Origin: Neophaeotheca triangularis
Lineage: Eukaryota
Direction: 5' to 3'
Assembly (NCBI GenBank): GCA_054600435.1
Contig: BAAIJX010000006.1
Span: 620,001 to 684,000 of the forward strand
DNA: 64,000 nucleotides
In this document: positions 5,307 through 51,136 of the stretch, piece after piece
Layout of the letters: each line of letters opens with the position of its first letter
Position numbering within the stretch: the stretch's first letter is position 1
The notes under the pieces: model-generated
The model's database searches: none
What the model was told of the DNA's origin: nothing
Seen by the model: the letters and a program-made list of their open reading frames with translations, nothing else
Program-made: the position numbers and the translations under genes

Positions 5307-6983
5307 TCACCCAGCAGCATAACCACTCTTCACCCTCAATCTCGCCCCATACTTCCACAACAAAAACGGCGCCGGAATCCCCAAAACCACTCCAGCAAAC
5401 CCTAACACACTATTCCCCCACCCATAACCCAAGGCATCGTACAAGCCGGGCGCGAACAAGGGAAAAGTAAATCCCCCCAACGATCGCAAAACCATCGTAG
5501 CCGCGATGCCACTCGCCGCGAAACGAGTATACGAGTCGACAATGTAAGTCTGACAGCACTGGAAGACCATCTGTTGGCCCGCGGCGAAGATGGCGGCGCC
5601 GATGTTCGGCACGACCCAGTGGGTGCGGTATTCGGCGCTCCAGCCGTAGAGGAACAGACCTATAGGTACGAGCGCTGTGCCGGGCATCATTAGAGGTACG
5701 CGGAATTCCGGGCGCCCTGTGTCTTGGTGTCTGGCTTTGAGCCGTTTGTAAACACGGTCGTTGATGTGAGCGGCTATTTGAGCGCCGAGGAAAAATCCCA
5801 CGCCGAGAGATATGTAGTTCAGCCCGCCTGTGCCGGCGTTTTGGTTGTAGACGGTTGTCCAGAGGACCGGAAAGGAGGCGAAGACGAGATAGAGAACGCC
5901 GTAGAGGTAGCCGATGTATAGGGCTAGAATCTGTACGATTGGTTGTGTGGAAATCATTATGAAGGGCCGGCTGAGCGCTATGCCTAGTGTTGAACGAAAG
6001 GTTCGGTTCGGGGTGTCGAATTCAGTGAACAAGTCTCGGTTTCCCGTTGCTTCGATGAGTTTATGCTTCTTTCGCTTCAAGATCTCGGGTGCATAGGTCT
6101 CTTTGAGGTAGAAGAGGCCAAAGGCTTGTATGACCATGGCAGCTATGCAAGTGCTCCAAAAGACCCAACGCCATGTGGTGTATTGAACAATGTAGCCCCC
6201 AGCAATTGGTCCAACGGCTGGGCCTAGCAGTGGCATGAGCGCGTAGTAGCCCATTGCTTTACCACGTTCCTGTGGCAGCCAGATATCTGCAATTACGCCG
6301 CCGCCGACACCAAGCGGTGCGCTTCCTCCTAGACCGGAGAGGAAGCGGAAGGCGATCAGTTGTCCTAGGTTTTGTGAAAAGCCGCACGCCAAGTTGAAAG
6401 CGAAATAGAACAGATTACTCAATTGGAAAATGATGCGGCGACCGAACAGCTCAGATAGAGGGCCTAGAAAGAGTGGTCCAAAGGCAAAGGCGAGGACAAA
6501 CGTACTCAGAGCGAGCTGTACGGTAGCATCACTGCCGATTTCAAAATCACTTTGAATTTGTTGTAGGCCTGGTGCGATCATAGAACTCGACACGGGCGAA
6601 ATGAACACAAACAGAGATACAACGCCCGTAACGGCCCATTTCTTCCTTTTCGACCAGTTCTTGGGATTCTGAGGGTCGTCAGCCCCGTCGAAGGTGACTA
6701 GGTTAGAATCTTTCTCTTTCTCGCGGTCGTTAGATGGTGACTTCTGAAGACCACTTGCTAAGGACGTTTCCACTTTCGGCTCGCCTGGTCCCTTTTCAAG
6801 GCTCGAATCCGTCCGGTTGTCGCGAATTTCCCGTGCCATGGGAGGTTCTCGTTCAGTCCCGGCATCACATCCCAGAATAGGTGTTTCAGTTTCCAGGCCA
6901 GTATTTACAGTCGGTTGAGAGCCTCCACTAGATGCTGTTCGCACGCTGGGAGTGATGGACTGTCTTCTCGGGGTCTCCACCAT
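5307..6983 (-). CDS. MFS drug:H+ antiporter (DHA1 family)
   Basis: Motifs DDPQNPKNW, GPLSELFGRR, FRFLSGLGGS and GRPEFR; about 12 TM segments; intronless. Start is uncertain (ORF extends to 7100). Confidence 0.9.
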   Translation of the reverse strand: MVETPRRQSITPSVRTASSGGSQPTVNTGLETETPILGCDAGTEREPPMAREIRDNRTDSSLEKGPGEPKVETSLASGLQKSPSNDREKEKDSNLVTFDGADDPQNPKNWSKRKKWAVTGVVSLFVFISPVSSSMIAPGLQQIQSDFEIGSDATVQLALSTFVLAFAFGPLFLGPLSELFGRRIIFQLSNLFYFAFNLACGFSQNLGQLIAFRFLSGLGGSAPLGVGGGVIADIWLPQERGKAMGYYALMPLLGPAVGPIAGGYIVQYTTWRWVFWSTCIAAMVIQAFGLFYLKETYAPEILKRKKHKLIEATGNRDLFTEFDTPNRTFRSTLGIALSRPFIMISTQPIVQILALYIGYLYGVLYLVFASFPVLWTTVYNQNAGTGGLNYISLGVGFFLGAQIAAHINDRVYKRLKARHQDTGRPEFRVPLMMPGTALVPIGLFLYGWSAEYRTHWVVPNIGAAIFAAGQQMVFQCCQTYIVDSYTRFAASGIAATMVLRSLGGFTFPLFAPGLYDALGYGWGNSVLGFAGVVLGIPAPFLLWKYGARLRVKSGYAAG

Positions 6984-7683
6984 GTTGGTCTCAAAAGGAA
7001 CCACGATCTGGGTCACTGTATGACGGACGTGGGAAACGATGGCAAGAGCGACCACCGCGATCAAGGCAGCTTGTATCAAATATAGACGGGAAGATAGCAT
7101 AGAAGAGGAAGTCCGCCTACCATACCATTAGTCGTGCCAATGTCTGTACTTACATCGTCCCAACAAACCGGAATGGCCGTGTCGACTGTCCGAGCAAGAC
7201 AGTACTTCTCGCAGCACGGCCAACCGTAAGCTAGTCGATCGAGGGATGCAAAGCATGGTTGACAACATTGGCAGTTAGGGAGAGGGTGGGGGTGGGGTGC
7301 CGGGGACATCGTACTACAAGGAATTATTGTCCGAGCGGGAAATCGTCCACGATCATCTACAGTCAAGGAAGGACCCTACCTCTAGAAAGTGTTAGACCCT
7401 CAATACTGACCATGGTCGATACGGTCTCTAGATGAAGAGCGATTGAAGTTCCAAGGTGCCCGATTTCCAAGGTTATAGTTGAAGCTGATGAGATGTTGAT
7501 GTGGTGACGTCCACGGGTCGCGCTTAGTAAAGCTTCCTGGTTGTGCTAACGTGGCTAACGCCGACGAGTCAATCTCAAACAATTCACAAAAAGACCAAAG
7601 AGCCTCAAAAATTTGCTTCCAAGGCCTTAAAGTGAGATAACCGACTCAATGGTAACTCAGATGGAGAAAAAGAAGCAGAAACC

Positions 7684-7699
7684 AAAAAGATGAACAAAA
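7684..7699 (-). terminator. Possible Pol III-type oligo-T terminator downstream of the tRNA-Pro gene
   Basis: T4 (7699-7696) and T5 (7688-7684) on the minus strand, 25-40 nt after the discriminator base. Confidence 0.4.
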
Positions 7700-7723
7700 G
7701 TAACTAGCTCTGGAGCTGAATTG

Positions 7724-7950
7724 GGGTCGGGCCGGGATTCGAACTGGGTTGGAGTTAGACATTGATAAGGTACGTTCCAGAATACATTTCATGCTTACCC
7801 CGGGGCCTCTCGCATTGATGCTCACATGGAATGTGAACCCGGACTCAGAGTGTACCCTAAGCGAGAATCATACCACTAGACCTGTGAAGCGGAAGTCAGT
7901 ACTGAGTCCGTTTGGGAGATGTTCCGCTCGGGGAGACATACCACTCGACC
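7724..7950 (-). tRNA. tRNA-Pro(AGG) gene in four exons (7950-7942, 7881-7855, 7814-7799, 7743-7724) with two spliceosomal-type introns (7941-7882, 7798-7744) and one canonical 37/38 intron (7854-7815)
   Basis: Joined exons give GGTCGAGTGGTCTAGTGGTATGATTCTCGCTTAGGGTGCGAGAGGCCCCGGGTTCGAATCCCGGCCCGACCC (72 nt). Acceptor stem GGTCGAG/CCCGACC, anticodon stem CTCGC/GCGAG, anticodon AGG, T stem CCGGG/CCCGG, T loop TTCGAAT. Confidence 0.9.
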
Positions 7951-8585
7951 ACATTTTCTGGACAACCCACTTGTGTGAGATGATGATGTAAGCGAAAAGC
8001 ATTACAAAATATATCAATACACATCAAAGTGAAGACGAGATAGCGTCGCTGCACGCCTAAGGCCCCGGCGTCAATAGAAACTGTTTTCGTCAGAAACCTC
8101 CCCGAGACTCTCTCTATCTTACTCGACTTGGAAGGATCGCCCTCTCCAAATTCAGAAAGTCTCACACTATAGTCGAAAAGCGTACGATGTAATTGATAAC
8201 TTTCCGACCGCGACCTTGCTAGATGGCCGACCCTACGCGCAGATTCTGCTAGCATTCTGGTGTTCTGTACAAGCCACAGGTCTGGGCATCACCTGTGGAA
8301 AACATGCTCCTCGGCGTCCAAACAGGAGGATCTTGTAGGGACGACAGTGATCGAGGTGTGCGGTTGAGTCACCCTGCGCCGCTATCTTATAATGCGCAGG
8401 GAAGTATTACGATTGAATGGCCACTGCAGTACTGGGTCTTTGAAAGAACTACTAGATGGTGTTCGAGCATCGCAGAGGGAAAAGGTGTCTAGCCTCAACG
8501 TGACGACCCTTACACTACCCTGATTTTGCTGGCCATTGTTGTCGTAGCTCAATTGCACTGTCTCTTCATTTTGGCCACTTCCCGA

Positions 8586-10373
8586 TCACCCCGCAACCAC
8601 CTCCTCAACATTCTTCCCAGCGAGCTCCCGCATCTCCGCCACGATATCTTTACTTTCCTGCCCCGACTTCAAGAGCTCCTTCCACCCCTCAAGCTTCTTG
8701 ACCGCCTCAGAGTGCCCTCCCACGGCAGCATACAGCTTGATCATCCTCGTCGTATCCTTCCCAGAACTCATGTACAACCCATCCGTCTCCCTCGCAAGCA
8801 ACACCCAAATCAGATTCTGCAAGACGTCCGAACCTCGCTTCATCTTCCGCAAGACCTGCAGACGTTGCTCGAGAAGCCGGTTTTTCGTCTGTGCAAGCGT
8901 ATCGGAGCTCGGGGCTTCCACCTTAAGCTTCTTCGCGCACTTCTGCACAGACATCAAGATCGATGACAGTGTCTTCGCTTCGTCGCAAGCTTGCGACATC
9001 TTGTCGACCTCCCTTGCTCGCGTCTTGTCCTTGAGTAAACCTTCGTTTTTGGCGGTTTTCAGAATCTCAGGTAAGTATTCCCGGCGGAAGTAGTCGCCAA
9101 TAAATTCTTCGAGATGCTGCTTCAGAGTGGAATCCGATGCTGTTGCCACGCCACGGGCATATGCCTCGACGGGGCTGATGATTTTCTCGTGGAAAAAGGT
9201 GATGAAGCGGAGACGGTCCTCCTCGGCAAGGTCCTGAATGCGGGAGTCGAAGGTTTGGGATATTCCCTGGCGGTAGCTTGTATCGAGGAGTAGCCTGTAA
9301 AGCTCGATGTCGGCCTCCTCTGCAGCAAGCGTTTCTACCTCCTTTCCGGCTCGGTGGTCAAAAGACGGCACTGGGGCCCCGCGTTCGCGTGCAGTCCAGG
9401 CATTCAACGCTGACTTTGACATCAGAGATTCGAGTTCTGTTATCGCAGCTTCAATGGCACTCTTTTGGGCAAGTAGAGTTGATTCGCCGCTCGAGATCGA
9501 TTCGACGTCGACTTCGAGGGCCTGTATTTCTTCAATCAAGTCTTGGACAGTCTTGTCCGCATCTTCTAATTTCTTCGAGTACGTGCTAGGCTCAATCGCA
9601 ACGTATCCCTGAGACTGCAGTTTCGAAGTAAGATCGTTCACCAGTGAATTGTACGTCTCGATTCGGTCAGCTCGTTGCGCGTGAGCGTACGCAGATGGCG
9701 TGAAAGTGACAACGCCATTGATCTGGTCTATAGCGCCCTCCAGAGTTTCGTCCCTAGCGAGCAAGTCCTTCGCCATCTTTGCAATCTTCGATGAAGAAAG
9801 ACCCCTGTTAAAGCGATCAAGCTCGCACCGCTGGTCGTTAGCATTCCGCATAGCATTCGCTATATCATCCTGAACTCGACCATGAAGATTCTTCTGGCAG
9901 ACATGCTTCTTGCTGCCGTCTGTCTGCACATCCATCAACTCCCTGCCTTGCGCTCTCCAGGCTTCGGTAAGGCTATCCAAGGAAACAATGTCGATATCCT
10001 TCTTGGTAGCGAACTGCTCAAGGTCGACCACTCGGTCTCCAGCGACAGTCCAAAGTTCATCGAAGATCTCTTCCGCCAAAGCGGAAGGTATGATTTGGTC
10101 GTTCCTGGCATAATTGAAGTAAATCGGACACGACACCAAGCCCAGGAGACGGTCAGCGCCTTGAACGCCAAGTTCATGGTCAAGCTCTCGAATACTAAGG
10201 CGGTTTGAATTCTCTGCTAATCGTTTCTCTAGGCGTCCCACGATGGCTCCAGACTGTACCAAGTGTTCGCCAGAGAAGCTACGTAAAAGTGTCGGCTTTT
10301 CTTTGGTAAGAGACGGTGGAGGGAAAGTTTGGAGCAGCGCAGCGACATCTTCATCCGTCCAGATGAGCGCCAT
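8586..10373 (-). CDS. Hypothetical helical protein, possibly a divergent UFL1 (E3 UFM1 ligase)-like protein
   Basis: 595-aa intronless ORF with natural composition. The UFL1 resemblance is by eye only. Confidence 0.75.
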   Translation of the reverse strand: MALIWTDEDVAALLQTFPPPSLTKEKPTLLRSFSGEHLVQSGAIVGRLEKRLAENSNRLSIRELDHELGVQGADRLLGLVSCPIYFNYARNDQIIPSALAEEIFDELWTVAGDRVVDLEQFATKKDIDIVSLDSLTEAWRAQGRELMDVQTDGSKKHVCQKNLHGRVQDDIANAMRNANDQRCELDRFNRGLSSSKIAKMAKDLLARDETLEGAIDQINGVVTFTPSAYAHAQRADRIETYNSLVNDLTSKLQSQGYVAIEPSTYSKKLEDADKTVQDLIEEIQALEVDVESISSGESTLLAQKSAIEAAITELESLMSKSALNAWTARERGAPVPSFDHRAGKEVETLAAEEADIELYRLLLDTSYRQGISQTFDSRIQDLAEEDRLRFITFFHEKIISPVEAYARGVATASDSTLKQHLEEFIGDYFRREYLPEILKTAKNEGLLKDKTRAREVDKMSQACDEAKTLSSILMSVQKCAKKLKVEAPSSDTLAQTKNRLLEQRLQVLRKMKRGSDVLQNLIWVLLARETDGLYMSSGKDTTRMIKLYAAVGGHSEAVKKLEGWKELLKSGQESKDIVAEMRELAGKNVEEVVAG

Positions 10374-10756
10374 CTTTGCAGCTTATAAGCCAGAGAAGTA
10401 GGAAGTCAGCTCTTTGATTCGTAGATGTGGCAAGCAAATTCCGTAAGAGCTCAAGTTGATAAGAGGCGAGCGGAAATGAGATCGGGATTCTTGTGAGGGT
10501 AAAACAATGCTGTAATTTTCGTCTTACAGCCGATCCTTGTCTCCTAGGTGCTTGCTCATGGGTGTAGGTTGTATCAAAGGAAGTGTCGGGCAGTAGCCAA
10601 AAGTTCGGATGAAGTCTCAAGGCTTTGGTCTTGGCCCCCACGCTCGGATCTTGACTTCATGGAGGTTGCTGCTGCACGTACGAACATCCACATCGACGAA
10701 TCATTCCACTACATACCTCCATAAGCCCTTCTCACACGTCTCCTCCTTCGCCCAGA

Positions 10757-49196: not shown

Positions 49197-50614
49197 TCAT
49201 TGGCGTTTCATGCTTTCTTTACTCGGCGCCCTGGTGCAGTCGGTTAGTTCATGGGGGCGAAGCATTCAGCATCACATATACTCGGCGGCACGACTGATTG
49301 CTAAGACTATCCATCTTTCACGAGCGAGATTCCCCTTTTTGCGCATAACACATTCCAGGTCGGCAAAGAAGGGAGGGGATGGCGCTGCTAGGCGTTTGAC
49401 ATTGCTGCTGCGAATGAGTTTTGCTTTTGTTCGCGCGCAGGCCCACTCACTGTAGCAAGAGTCCGGCTTGCTCATTGAGGAAGGGTGTTGTTGCATCCAA
49501 TCGATCACATAGGTGGTCCCAGTTCCTGAACATGACGGGAGGTTCATATCATGGGGCTTCTTTCTTTCTCCTGTTGTACAAGACTTTGTCGATGATCCAT
49601 GGAGTTGGGGGTTAAAAGGGGAATGCATATCAATAGGGAGACGCAGACTTTTATTCTCTGCACTGCTGTGTAACGGCCTCAAGGCACTCTTTCCATGCAA
49701 TCGAGATTCTCTTGCTGCTGCTGCTGCTGTACGTGGATCATCTGTCGACTCATTACTTTTCTCGCTACCGTCACCGGTGATTATCCGCGATCTGATTAAG
49801 ATATTTTTTTCTGGCAATGCTATGCTCTACTTGCTAGTCATAGTCCAGTGCGCAAAGTTCGAGACAAGAAAAGCGTCAGTCAACCCATTAACCCAACCGC
49901 TTCAGCGACTCCACATGGAAGCTCCACCGAAGACTAGAGTCTACAGTAAACCCCCGCTTTCGTCTAGTCAAAACAAAAATCCGCGATCCCCAAGTCTGAG
50001 CGCGTCACTCGAAGTTCCCAGTCCAGCTCTGCCCTGTCCTCTACGCTACGCGCCTGTTTGCTGAATCGCCCAAGTCAAATATCGAACCCCCGGGAAGCAG
50101 CATCGTCTCCAAATTACGAGGCTTATGGATCCTGCCATGCCTGTAGATTAGCTACGCGGGTTGCGCCGTGCAGTGGGAAGATTCATTGGCTTTTCGAACG
50201 TGCTGGCCGTCTCTGTGAACCGATTCTCATGAGCGAGTATTTCGTGTTGTTTTGCGCAGTTGCTCTTTGGGGCCATTGCTCGCTGCTGCGCTGTTGGGGG
50301 TTTTCGGTCATACGCAGCCGGTAGCTGTTTCAGAAAAAGACGGTTACTTAGTCTGAGCTGCTACATGTGGCTGGGCTGTTGTAACGAGCTTTTCTAGTCG
50401 ACTATGATTGTCGCAACAGGTGGATCTTGAAGTCAACCCTTGAGCGGTTTCATTTTAAAAGAAGATTTCGTTCAGTCATAAGCTGCTACTACAGTGGCAG
50501 TGCGGCGAGCAAAGCCCTCTCATCTGCATGCTCTCCCCAATCAGACTGCGCACGCATTGTCGCTGGAATACCCAGTGTATCCGTCTCTACTCAGGGCTTT
50601 GGAGCTCTCCAGAA

Positions 50615-51136
50615 TTACCTCCTCCTGCGTACAAGCCGCTCAACAACATCCATACCCGACGACTTCTTAACCATCCCATCAACCACCCAAAGCGGCAAAA
50701 AGTACGCGAACCACTGGGCCCACACGTAATATCTTCTGGAATCAAATTGCGGCGGCTTGTCCTTCAAAAGCTCCCCAACGGTAGCCTTGGCCTAGTCGTC
50801 GGCAGGATAAGATAACATGGCCTCGAAACGGTCTCCCCCAATCATGGTATCGACGTGCTCCCTGGCCGGATCAAAGGTTGACTCTTTGGGCGACTTGGAT
50901 TGCGTGACTTTCCCGTTAGAAATAGAATTCGTCTTGACGCCTCCGGTGCGGAGGTTGACGACTGCGATGTCAAAAGGCTCAAGGTCGCGGCGAAGAGTCT
51001 CAGTGTACGAATTGAAAGCAGCTTTGGAGGCGTTGTAGATTGCTTGAAAATGTACGTTCAGGAGGAAGCCAAAGGATATGTTGTTGGCAATGATGGCTTT
51101 GGGCGATTTGAGCAAGAGTGACATGAATGCCTTCAA
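50615..51136 (-). pseudogene. Truncated short-chain dehydrogenase (AYR1-like) remnant
   Basis: YNASKAA (YxxxK) and LRRDLEPFD...G.V.T motifs. In-frame TAG at 50792-50794, after which the frame continues to TAA at 50615-50617. No N-terminal Rossmann TGxxxGxG seen upstream. Confidence 0.7.

Follow-up and report, generated by a model that had tools for sequence, protein, structure and literature searches.

The minus strand of the window (the whole analysed stretch of 64 kb) carries, between positions 7950 and 7724, a fungal-type tRNA-Pro(AGG) gene composed of four exons and three introns. Judging from its sequence, we are highly confident that this is a real tRNA-Pro(AGG) gene under selection: sequence comparisons demonstrate the gene structure, its conservation and selection acting on the spliced product. 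Chances appear about even that it is a functional nuclear gene which needs two splicing machineries and is transcribed by Pol III from external signals. Tentatively, it may represent the first natural tRNA with a maturation requiring both the spliceosome and the tRNA endonuclease. In such a scenario, two mRNA-type introns would have broken the internal Pol III promoter of an old conserved fungal tRNA-Pro(AGG) lineage, an external TATA-type promoter would have taken over, and an A-box mimic in exon 1 would help.

Gene structure and its conservation in relatives

Exon 1 (positions 7942-7950, 9 nt) codes for tRNA positions 1-9, i.e., the 5' strand of the acceptor stem, U8 and G9, and ends with T8 G9. 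Intron 1 (I1; 7882-7941, 60 nt) lies between tRNA positions 9 and 10 and has a GTATGT donor, a TACTGAC branch site with the branch A located 14 nt before the intron 3' end, and a CAG acceptor. Exon 2 (7855-7881) covers positions 10-37, including the D arm, the 5' half of the anticodon arm and the AGG anticodon. The canonical tRNA intron (I2; 7815-7854, 40 nt) is located at 37/38, with a one-T slide possible at its boundary, and ARAGORN reports it as an anticodon-loop intron. Exon 3 (7799-7814, tRNA positions 38-53) is separated from exon 4 by intron 3 (I3; 7744-7798, 55 nt), which is inserted between positions 53 and 54 and has GTAAGC as donor, CAG as acceptor and, 11 nt from its 3' end, the A of a GTCTAAC branch site. 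Exon 4 (7724-7743) completes the molecule with positions 54-73: the T loop, the 3' strands of the T and acceptor stems and the discriminator C. All these features are on the minus strand, as are the two neighbours, a 598-codon ORF upstream (8586-10382) and an MFS transporter gene downstream (5307-7127). Sequencing run X1, presumed to be of RNA, yields a single 165-nt contig at 7215-7378, outside the tRNA gene, and has no bearing on whether the gene is expressed.

No tRNA was detected by ARAGORN in the unspliced genomic sequence or by an Rfam search of the unspliced window. Removal of I1 and I3 results in a clean tRNA-Pro(agg) with a 40-nt canonical intron. As a control, all intron-grammar candidates on either strand of the 64 kb were used to generate virtual splice products, 864 overall (526 single removals and 338 pairs). 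A tRNA was obtained from just one of them, exactly the I1 and I3 pair. The count of loose candidates is in itself uninformative (526 observed vs 767 +/- 66 in Markov simulations).

A search for the same junction pattern gave five matches (L001-L005) in metagenome contigs and none in either genome or viral contigs; the matches were compared together with their 600-nt flanks. The four-exon architecture is kept in L002/L004 and L005, distant relatives of the window gene. ARAGORN finds no tRNA in the genomic sequence of the window gene, L002, L004 or L005 (0/4), and tRNA-Pro(agg) in every one of them once I1 and I3 are removed (4/4). As L004 and L005 are close relatives of each other, the comparison effectively includes two independent lineages, not three. 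The other two matches were set aside: L001 is an uninterrupted tRNA-Pro(TGG) gene with A8, and L003, a tRNA-Pro truncated at its 5' end, has no candidate for exon 1 upstream.

I1 occupies an identical position in the window gene, L004 and L005. I3 of L004 and L005 (53/54 nt) is located at 54/55, one base beyond the 53/54 site of the window. The suggestion that both introns were inserted after an exonic G is therefore correct for the window and does not extend to L004 and L005, where I3 comes after T54. All 27 positions of exon 2 are shared by the window, L004 and L005. The latter two loci agree with each other at 92 of 92 positions of the exons and the canonical intron (21/21 for this intron), compared to 82 of 107 for I1 and I3 (Fisher p 6e-8); their background divergence is uneven, with the 470 nt upstream being ~96% identical, and any one estimate of the neutral rate is weakened by this. 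The window and L004 differ at 8 of the 72 mature positions, and four of these differences make up two compensatory pairs, 5:68 and 52:62, each being G-C in one copy and T-A in the other. Both pairs bridge introns. The spliced window product has 19 of the 21 standard cloverleaf pairs, with an A6.C67 mismatch in the acceptor stem, and L004 and L005 have 20 of 21. The shared architecture, conservation of exons and compensatory changes together point to a conserved, selected gene with introns bearing spliceosomal signals. The earlier note regarded the insertion sites as consistent with intron gain by reverse splicing; the shared intron positions show no more than that the introns are old.

A dead tRNA pseudogene with two chance insertions and no function would agree with the A.C mismatch in the acceptor stem of the window copy and with the failure of standard tRNA finders to detect the gene. 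Such an interpretation is very improbable: the four-exon layout recurs in L002/L004 and L005, exons and I2 are invariant between L004 and L005 where the other introns diverge, two stems have changed in a compensatory way, and a tRNA resulted from only one of the control removals. An uninterrupted tRNA-Pro(AGG) copy may be present elsewhere in the genome, which could leave the window copy dispensable.

Nature of the introns

All six instances of I1 and I3 (from the window, L004 and L005) are 53-60 nt long and have a GT(A/T)(A/T)G(T/C) donor, a CAG acceptor and a CT(A/G)AC branch site, the A of which is 11-14 nt from the intron end. The introns that join ORFs in the window share this grammar, with lengths of 53-81 nt, GTAAG/GTGAG donors and CTGAC/CTAAC located 10-15 nt ahead of YAG. 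The 18 nt of I1 that extend from the branch site to the acceptor do not differ between L004 and L005, in contrast to the remainder of the intron, which diverges. These signals make it quite probable that I1 and I3 are removed by the spliceosome.

I2 is of a different kind. It starts with CACTCTGAGT, which is common to the 21-nt intron of L004 and L005 and, as read from the sequence, is complementary to the anticodon loop. I2 thus resembles the canonical eukaryotic 37/38 introns in its position and in the complementarity of its 5' part, while I1 and I3 differ from them in their grammar and in being outside the sole position normally served by the eukaryotic endonuclease.

Non-canonical tRNA introns of the Cyanidioschyzon and nucleomorph style, cut by the tRNA splicing endonuclease via a bulge-helix-bulge fold, might look like a natural explanation for I1 and I3. 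There, several introns per gene are known, including ectopic ones in the D and T arms which interrupt both the A and B boxes (PMC4090602, PMC3978253 and PMC3728597). We find this explanation scarcely credible here, since the parts conserved inside I1 and I3 are the donor, the branch site and the acceptor. The length of 53-60 nt is that of mRNA introns of the same genome, in contrast to the 3-24 nt given for nucleomorph ectopic introns in PMC4090602. A crude test for a 4-bp central helix, which the canonical I2 fails too, gave a candidate in one of the six junction pairs, that of I1 in L004, and this candidate is absent in L005. The Cyanidioschyzon and nucleomorph introns have no GT..branch..AG grammar and rely on the bulge-helix-bulge fold, whereas I1 and I3 possess full spliceosomal signals and no conserved fold of this kind by the crude helix test. 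The organism of the window, moreover, looks like a filamentous fungus, going by its intron grammar and gene content.

A mobile (introner-like) origin of the introns was considered as well and is without support: no further copy of I1, I2 or I3 is present within the 64-kb window, where just chance matches of 8-13 nt were found.

Internal promoter boxes and signals outside the gene

TFIIIC needs the A and B boxes in the DNA. In tRNA numbering the A box corresponds to positions 8-19 and the B box to positions 52-62 (as delimited in PMC3978253). Gene coordinates confirm what had been noticed earlier, namely that I1 splits the A box between G9 and G10 and I3 splits the B box between G53 and T54. 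The contiguous boxes required by a type-2 Pol III promoter are both interrupted in the DNA. With its internal promoter split by I1 and I3, the gene probably depends on outside signals.

The earlier note had also proposed that the boxes are partly rebuilt by the intron 3' ends. This holds for the window, where the intron AG followed by GTCTAGTGG (7873-7883, minus strand) forms a native A-box remnant with two mismatches to the A-box consensus, and the AG followed by TTCGAATCC (7735-7745, minus strand) forms a B-box remnant with one mismatch to GGTTCGANNCC. It fails for L004 and L005: with I3 at 54/55, their DNA contains no reconstituted B box, and no B-box match with up to two mismatches was found in the tRNA region of these loci. 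Since the boxes are split and L004 and L005 lack a B-box match, a type-2 promoter of the ordinary TFIIIC-driven kind would probably not suffice, and it is plausible that other elements substitute for it.

One such element, overlooked previously, may be the 11-mer at 7951-7941 of the minus strand, which includes the preceding base T, exon 1 and the first G of I1. It has one mismatch to TRGCNNAGTGG and is the best A-box match within 1.5 kb, so we propose it as a candidate substitute A box. This look-alike is identical at 13 of 14 positions to the native D-arm copy at 7882-7869, and the score of the full-segment alignment was reached by only 1 out of 500 shuffles. The look-alike is weaker in L004 and L005, with three mismatches to the consensus. 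Origin of I1 by tandem duplication was rejected: minus the 14-mer, alignment of the I1 body with exon 2 and I2 is no better than that of shuffled sequences (score reached by 29/500 shuffles and, in a second run, by 298/1000 for the window, 166/1000 for L004 and 370/1000 for L005).

Outside the gene, a TATA-like element, ATATATTTT (8006-8014, minus strand), spans -64 to -56 relative to tRNA position 1 and is a candidate external promoter element; L004 and L005 have TATATA at -58/-57. The downstream T4/T5 runs reported earlier are indeed there: a T4 (7699-7696) and two T5 (7688-7684 and 7671-7667) are found in the 7667-7699 segment of the minus strand, 25, 36 and 53 nt past C73, and may serve as a Pol III terminator. 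L004 has a T5 at +5 and a T7 at +14, and L005 has a T6 at +15. The first T5-T7 run is thus located 5-36 nt past C73 in the window, L004 and L005, and none of the gene bodies contains a T run of at least 5. I1 of L004 and L005 has a T4 run which could weakly terminate Pol III. Both kinds of signal are rare on the minus strand of the window, with 28 TATA-like hexamers in 64 kb (0.7% of positions have one within a given 25-nt stretch) and a T5 starting in the next 45 nt for just 2.3% of positions, but these whole-window base rates understate the expectation, as intergenic DNA is richer in TATA-like and T-rich tracts. With a TATA element at about -60, the 5' leader would be unusually long for a tRNA gene.

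Transcription, maturation and known parallels

Spliceosomal splicing is normally coupled to Pol II. The earlier note took the split boxes to imply another transcription mode, with Pol II as the lead option. The boxes are split, the split is conserved and substitute elements are plausible, but "implied" is too strong a word. Pol II has to give up its lead: no result is specific to it, and the T5-T7 runs combined with an upstream TATA correspond to the upstream-promoter Pol III layout, known from U6 (PMC5855946) and Cyanidioschyzon tRNA genes (PMC3978253). According to the latter paper, yeast tRNA genes with an upstream TATA can be transcribed in vitro free of TFIIIC. By analogy with these systems, we lean slightly towards Pol III rather than Pol II as the polymerase.

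The polymerase, the functions of the upstream TATA-like element and of the A-box look-alike, and the sequence of steps are inferred as follows. Pol III, positioned by the upstream TATA-like element via TFIIIB, would make a precursor of about 300 nt, possibly assisted by the A-box look-alike of exon 1 and by the B-box remnant, which is almost complete; the T5 run located 36 nt beyond C73 would terminate the transcript. The spliceosome would then take out I1 (9/10) and I3 (53/54), and cloverleaf formation would be possible only after the removal of both. End trimming by the usual enzymes would follow, along with excision of the canonical 37/38 intron by tRNA endonuclease and ligase.

The gene and its spliceosomal processing could be just the same with a precursor made by Pol II and the tRNA cut out after splicing. 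The transcript would come either from a TATA-driven unit of its own, as in fungal snRNA and snoRNA genes, or from read-through or the UTR of a same-strand neighbour. The normal coupling of splicing to Pol II speaks for this, as do the split A and B boxes, the B box not being rebuilt in L004 and L005, and the location of both flanking genes on the tRNA strand. The TATA-like element ~60 nt upstream is compatible with Pol II too and suits it equally. There is even a precedent, the Pol II-made tRNA-Sec of Trypanosoma brucei (reported in PMC2943599). We nevertheless consider Pol II transcription unlikely, though by no means far-fetched. Pol II needs neither T5-T7 runs at 5-36 nt nor gene bodies free of T runs of at least 5, and no Pol II-specific feature was found in the sequences. 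In the window, 636 nt separate the stop codon of the upstream ORF from the tRNA start, and another ~600 nt lie between the tRNA end and the MFS reading frame. Within 540 nt on each side of L004 and L005 no ORF exceeds 90 codons, which leaves these loci with no obvious host gene.

An ordinary TFIIIC-dependent type-2 Pol III promoter acting through the box remnants, with the TATA-like element being incidental, is improbable. Normally, Pol III initiates shortly upstream of the A box, at a constant spacing, and a start measured from the D-arm A box would fall within I1, giving a transcript that lacks exon 1. The window remnants are admittedly close to consensus, with one mismatch in the B box and two in the D-arm A box, T-run terminators are present, and a stretched A-B spacing is tolerated by TFIIIC (PMC4090602). 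However, the tRNA region of L004 and L005 offers no B-box match at the two-mismatch threshold, and the TATA-like element is found at a similar distance in both lineages. Transcription by Pol III from external signals is the reading that we favour.

In the literature covered by our search we found no report of spliceosomal introns in tRNA genes; as most subscription journals are outside this coverage, absence from print is unproven. Three reviews of tRNA gene structure and repertoires (PMC4033280, PMC4090602, PMC13578239) contain no "spliceosom" word. Nuclear intron types are treated as separate in textbooks and in recent work (PMC12530127), with spliceosomal introns assigned to Pol II transcripts and endonuclease-cut introns to tRNAs. 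A conserved tRNA gene having both types would blur this boundary. If the proposed route is true, the supply of a decoding tRNA would be tied to the activity of the spliceosome. The gene would further demonstrate that disruption of both internal boxes is survivable for a tRNA gene outside red algae and nucleomorphs, and would constitute a compact system for asking whether Pol II is a requirement for splicing and by which rules Pol III chooses its start site when the A box is displaced. As standard tRNA finders miss such genes, fungal tRNA sets may wrongly appear to lack an isoacceptor.

The closest parallel is U6 of S. pombe and other fungi, where a GT-AG intron interrupts a Pol III-class gene for a small non-coding RNA. 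The S. pombe U6 RNA is a Pol III transcript spliced by the spliceosome, and its promoter elements are rearranged around the intron, with an upstream TATA, an intragenic A block and the B block inside the intron (PMC5855946). Besides U6, the tRNA-Pro gene would stand for a second natural class of RNAs, likely made by Pol III, that the spliceosome processes. It differs from U6 in having two such introns plus a tRNA-type one, and Pol III is its putative polymerase. The U6 RNA is itself a component of the spliceosome, which accounts for its intron as a product of reverse splicing in the active site; tRNA-Pro has no such link to the spliceosome.

The tRNA-Sec of T. brucei illustrates that a nuclear tRNA can come from a polymerase other than Pol III, although it has no spliceosomal introns, and Pol II is not indicated for tRNA-Pro. 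As for the feasibility of the proposed route, Koehrer, Vogel and Domdey are said to have reported in EMBO J in 1990 that a yeast pre-tRNA with an inserted mRNA intron, made by Pol III, was spliced via the pre-mRNA pathway. That construct, which would show the route to be feasible, was artificial, while the tRNA-Pro case is natural and conserved.

Organisation of the split tRNA-Pro(AGG) gene

The tRNA-Pro(AGG) gene occupies the minus strand of the window and is divided into four exons: 7950-7942 (9 nt, tRNA positions 1-9), 7881-7855 (positions 10-37), 7814-7799 (positions 38-53) and 7743-7724 (positions 54-73). Between them lie intron 1 (7941-7882, 60 nt, between G9 and G10), intron 2 (7854-7815, 40 nt, at the canonical anticodon-loop position) and intron 3 (7798-7744, 55 nt, between G53 and T54). 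No tRNA was found in the unaltered window by ARAGORN, even with its anticodon-loop intron option, or by Rfam at gathering or relaxed thresholds. Once introns 1 and 3 were deleted by a script, ARAGORN called tRNA-Pro(agg), reading the 40-nt segment at the canonical anticodon-loop position as an intron; the predicted tRNA has an A.C mismatch at pair 6:67. The earlier note was therefore correct in placing intron 1 at G9/G10 within the A box and intron 3 at G53/T54 within the B box, which correspond to tRNA positions 8-19 and 52-62, respectively (PMC3978253).

As a chance control, segments of 35-150 nt with a GTRNG donor and CTRAY within 45 nt of AG were collected from both window strands. Their deletion, singly (526) or as neighbouring pairs (338), gave 864 products, each of which was run through ARAGORN. 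Just one product yielded a tRNA, namely that lacking the intron 1 and intron 3 pair of tRNA-Pro(AGG).

Related loci and selection on the spliced product

A single scan of metagenome contigs for AG followed by exon 2 returned five loci, which were compared with 600-nt flanks. L001, an ordinary tRNA-Pro(TGG) with A8, was set aside, as was L003, a 5'-truncated copy. The tRNA-Pro(AGG) copy of L003 (602-657) aligns with the Rfam tRNA model over positions 9-63 only. It has AG immediately 5' of G10, but the 600 nt upstream contain no candidate for a first exon. This copy probably comes from an unrelated organism and is a tRNA-derived element that has been truncated.

The other three loci share the four-exon layout of the window gene, with a canonical intron between two outer ones. 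L002 and L004, from two contigs, show no difference over 1229 nt, and L005 is a diverged relative. Since L004 and L005 are close relatives, the comparison covers two independent lineages, not three. In L002, L004 and L005, a 9-nt exon 1 is followed by a 53-nt intron 1 (GTTAGT or GTAAGT donor, TACTAAC branch site, CAG). Exon 2 is identical, the canonical intron measures 21 nt, and exons 3 and 4 are separated by an intron 3 of 53 or 54 nt (GTAAGT donor, AACTGAC branch site, CAG acceptor). ARAGORN finds no tRNA in their undeleted genomic sequence; upon deletion of the outer introns it calls tRNA-Pro(agg) in four of four loci, the window included.

L004 and L005 have not diverged evenly along the locus. 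The four exons (71/71) and the canonical intron (21/21) are identical, while intron 1 retains 45 of 53 positions, intron 3 retains 37 of 54, and the 100-nt flanks are 83% and 78% identical (Fisher p 6e-8 for exons plus intron 2 versus introns 1 and 3). The mature tRNAs of the window and L004 show 8 differences over 72 positions. Four of these make up two compensatory pairs, 5:68 and 52:62, where the window has G-C and L004 has T-A. Both pairs link exons kept apart by introns in the DNA, which argues that selection acted on the folded, spliced tRNA and that the introns are removed precisely.

Two further features of L004 and L005 were observed. A block of about 470 nt (1-470 in L004), about 96% identical and ending 70 nt upstream of the tRNA, is conserved far above the introns and the downstream flank; it has no open reading frame above 90 codons and no Rfam match, and is a conserved non-coding block. 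In the first 30 or so bases, on the opposite strand, an A-box-like TAGATCAGTGG with one mismatch follows a possible acceptor strand and may be where a further tRNA gene begins, truncated at the edge of the sequence compared.

Nature and origin of the introns

In the window, intron 1 has a GTATGT donor, a TACTGAC branch site with the branch A 14 nt before the 3' end, and CAG; intron 3 has a GTAAGC donor, a GTCTAAC branch site with the branch A 11 nt before the 3' end, and CAG. Introns 1 and 3 match real introns of the same genome: the segments joining open reading frames in the window range from 53 to 81 nt, start with GTAAG or GTGAG and have CTGAC or CTAAC 10-15 nt ahead of a YAG acceptor. Donor, branch site, branch-acceptor distance and acceptor stay constant across the lineages, a combination that is the spliceosomal signature. 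We infer with considerable confidence that introns 1 and 3 are removed by the spliceosome. A bulge-helix-bulge central-helix test gave a candidate, unconserved, at one of six junction pairs; the test is crude, because the canonical intron fails it too. The first bases of intron 2 are common to both lineages and complementary to the anticodon loop, and this intron behaves as a normal tRNA intron. No further copies of the gene's introns were found within the 64-kb window.

As the intron positions are common to both lineages, the introns should be older than the lineage split. Intron 3 is shifted by one base, lying at 54/55 in L004 (667/721) and L005 (reverse strand) and at 53/54 in the window (7798/7744), which could reflect sliding or a separate gain. 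Insertion after an exonic G, proposed earlier, applies to the window and does not extend to intron 3 of L004 and L005. A tandem-duplication origin of intron 1 is not supported: without the 14-mer, its score was reached by 29 of 500 shuffles and, in a second shuffle test on the window, L004 and L005, by 166 to 370 of 1000.

Candidate transcription signals and a possible expression pathway

With the preceding AG, the window D-arm copy has two mismatches to the A-box consensus and the T-arm copy one to the B-box consensus, bearing out for the window the suggestion that intron ends partly rebuild the boxes. The B box is not rebuilt in L004 and L005, because their intron 3 lies one base further; their tRNA region has no B-box match with two or fewer mismatches. 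Initiation by Pol III normally takes place at a short, set distance 5' of the A box. With the D-arm copy as the reference point, transcription would begin within intron 1 and exon 1 would be missing; therefore, the box remnants alone cannot give a useful transcript.

Other signals lie outside the exons. The window, L004 and L005 share an upstream TATA-like element (minus strand 8014-8006, at -64, in the window; at -58 in L004 and L005). All three have T5-T7 runs 5 to 36 nt past the discriminator base and no run of at least five T inside the gene. Both kinds of element are rare in the window: at whole-window rates, a TATA-like hexamer occurs in a given 25-nt stretch for 0.7% of positions and a T5 start in a given 45-nt stretch for 2.3%, intergenic DNA being richer in both. 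In addition, 7951-7941, which spans exon 1 with one base on either side (the nucleotide preceding the tRNA and the initial G of intron 1), reads as an A box with one mismatch, the best match in 1.5 kb. It belongs to a 13/14 direct repeat on the minus strand between 7951-7937 (exon 1 extended five bases into the intron) and the D-arm copy at 7882-7869 (tRNA positions 9-22). The corresponding sequence of L004 and L005 is weaker: it matches their own D-arm copy at 11 of 14 positions and has three mismatches to the consensus. Hypothetically, 7951-7941 could serve as a substitute A box; the repeat could be an A-box mimic under selection, or a vestige from the history of the gene.

We favour Pol III transcription directed by the TATA-like element, perhaps with a contribution from the B-box remnant and the A-box look-alike in exon 1. 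The transcript would end at the T run. Removal of introns 1 and 3 by the spliceosome would precede the usual trimming of the tRNA ends and the excision of intron 2 by the endonuclease. An EMBO J 1990 experiment is reported to have inserted an mRNA intron into a yeast pre-tRNA, which was spliced via the pre-mRNA pathway. Every part of the pathway favoured here has a precedent. In S. pombe, U6 RNA is made by Pol III and carries a spliceosomal intron, which contains the B box (PMC5855946). The A and B boxes of Cyanidioschyzon tRNA genes are interrupted by up to three introns, and an upstream TATA allows yeast tRNA genes to be transcribed in vitro independently of TFIIIC (PMC3978253), a factor that tolerates variable box spacing (PMC4090602).

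Transcription by Pol II, the other mode suggested in the earlier note besides Pol III with substitute elements, is a real rival, though the less likely reading. A TATA box is compatible with it, the genes on either side share the strand of tRNA-Pro(AGG), and tRNA-Sec of T. brucei is reported to be made by Pol II (PMC2943599), but it leaves the conserved T runs without explanation and no Pol II-specific feature was found.

In the full-text literature searched, mostly outside subscription journals, no paper describes a tRNA gene with spliceosomal introns, and the reviews consulted on tRNA gene structure or repertoires contain no word beginning with "spliceosom". A 2025 paper treats nuclear intron types as unrelated and assigns spliceosomal introns to Pol II transcripts (PMC12530127). 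We place tRNA-Pro(AGG) alongside two groups already known: tRNA genes that are disrupted, and small Pol III RNAs that carry mRNA-type introns.

The window also codes for an MFS transporter, an acetyl-CoA transporter and Arb2 domains; the "fungal" label for the organism rests on intron grammar and gene content. Upstream of tRNA-Pro(AGG), a 598-codon open reading frame (8586-10382, minus strand) has only a marginal Pfam match and only two relatives (99% and 56% identity) in a collection of 5.8 billion proteins, and represents a poorly sampled protein and lineage. A weak SNORD71 match at 50549-50633 on the minus strand (24.9 bits against a gathering score of 34, E 0.69) is probably due to chance. 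Of 6800-8800, one public run covers only 7215-7378, with a 165-nt contig that falls between tRNA-Pro(AGG) and the reading frame of the MFS transporter.
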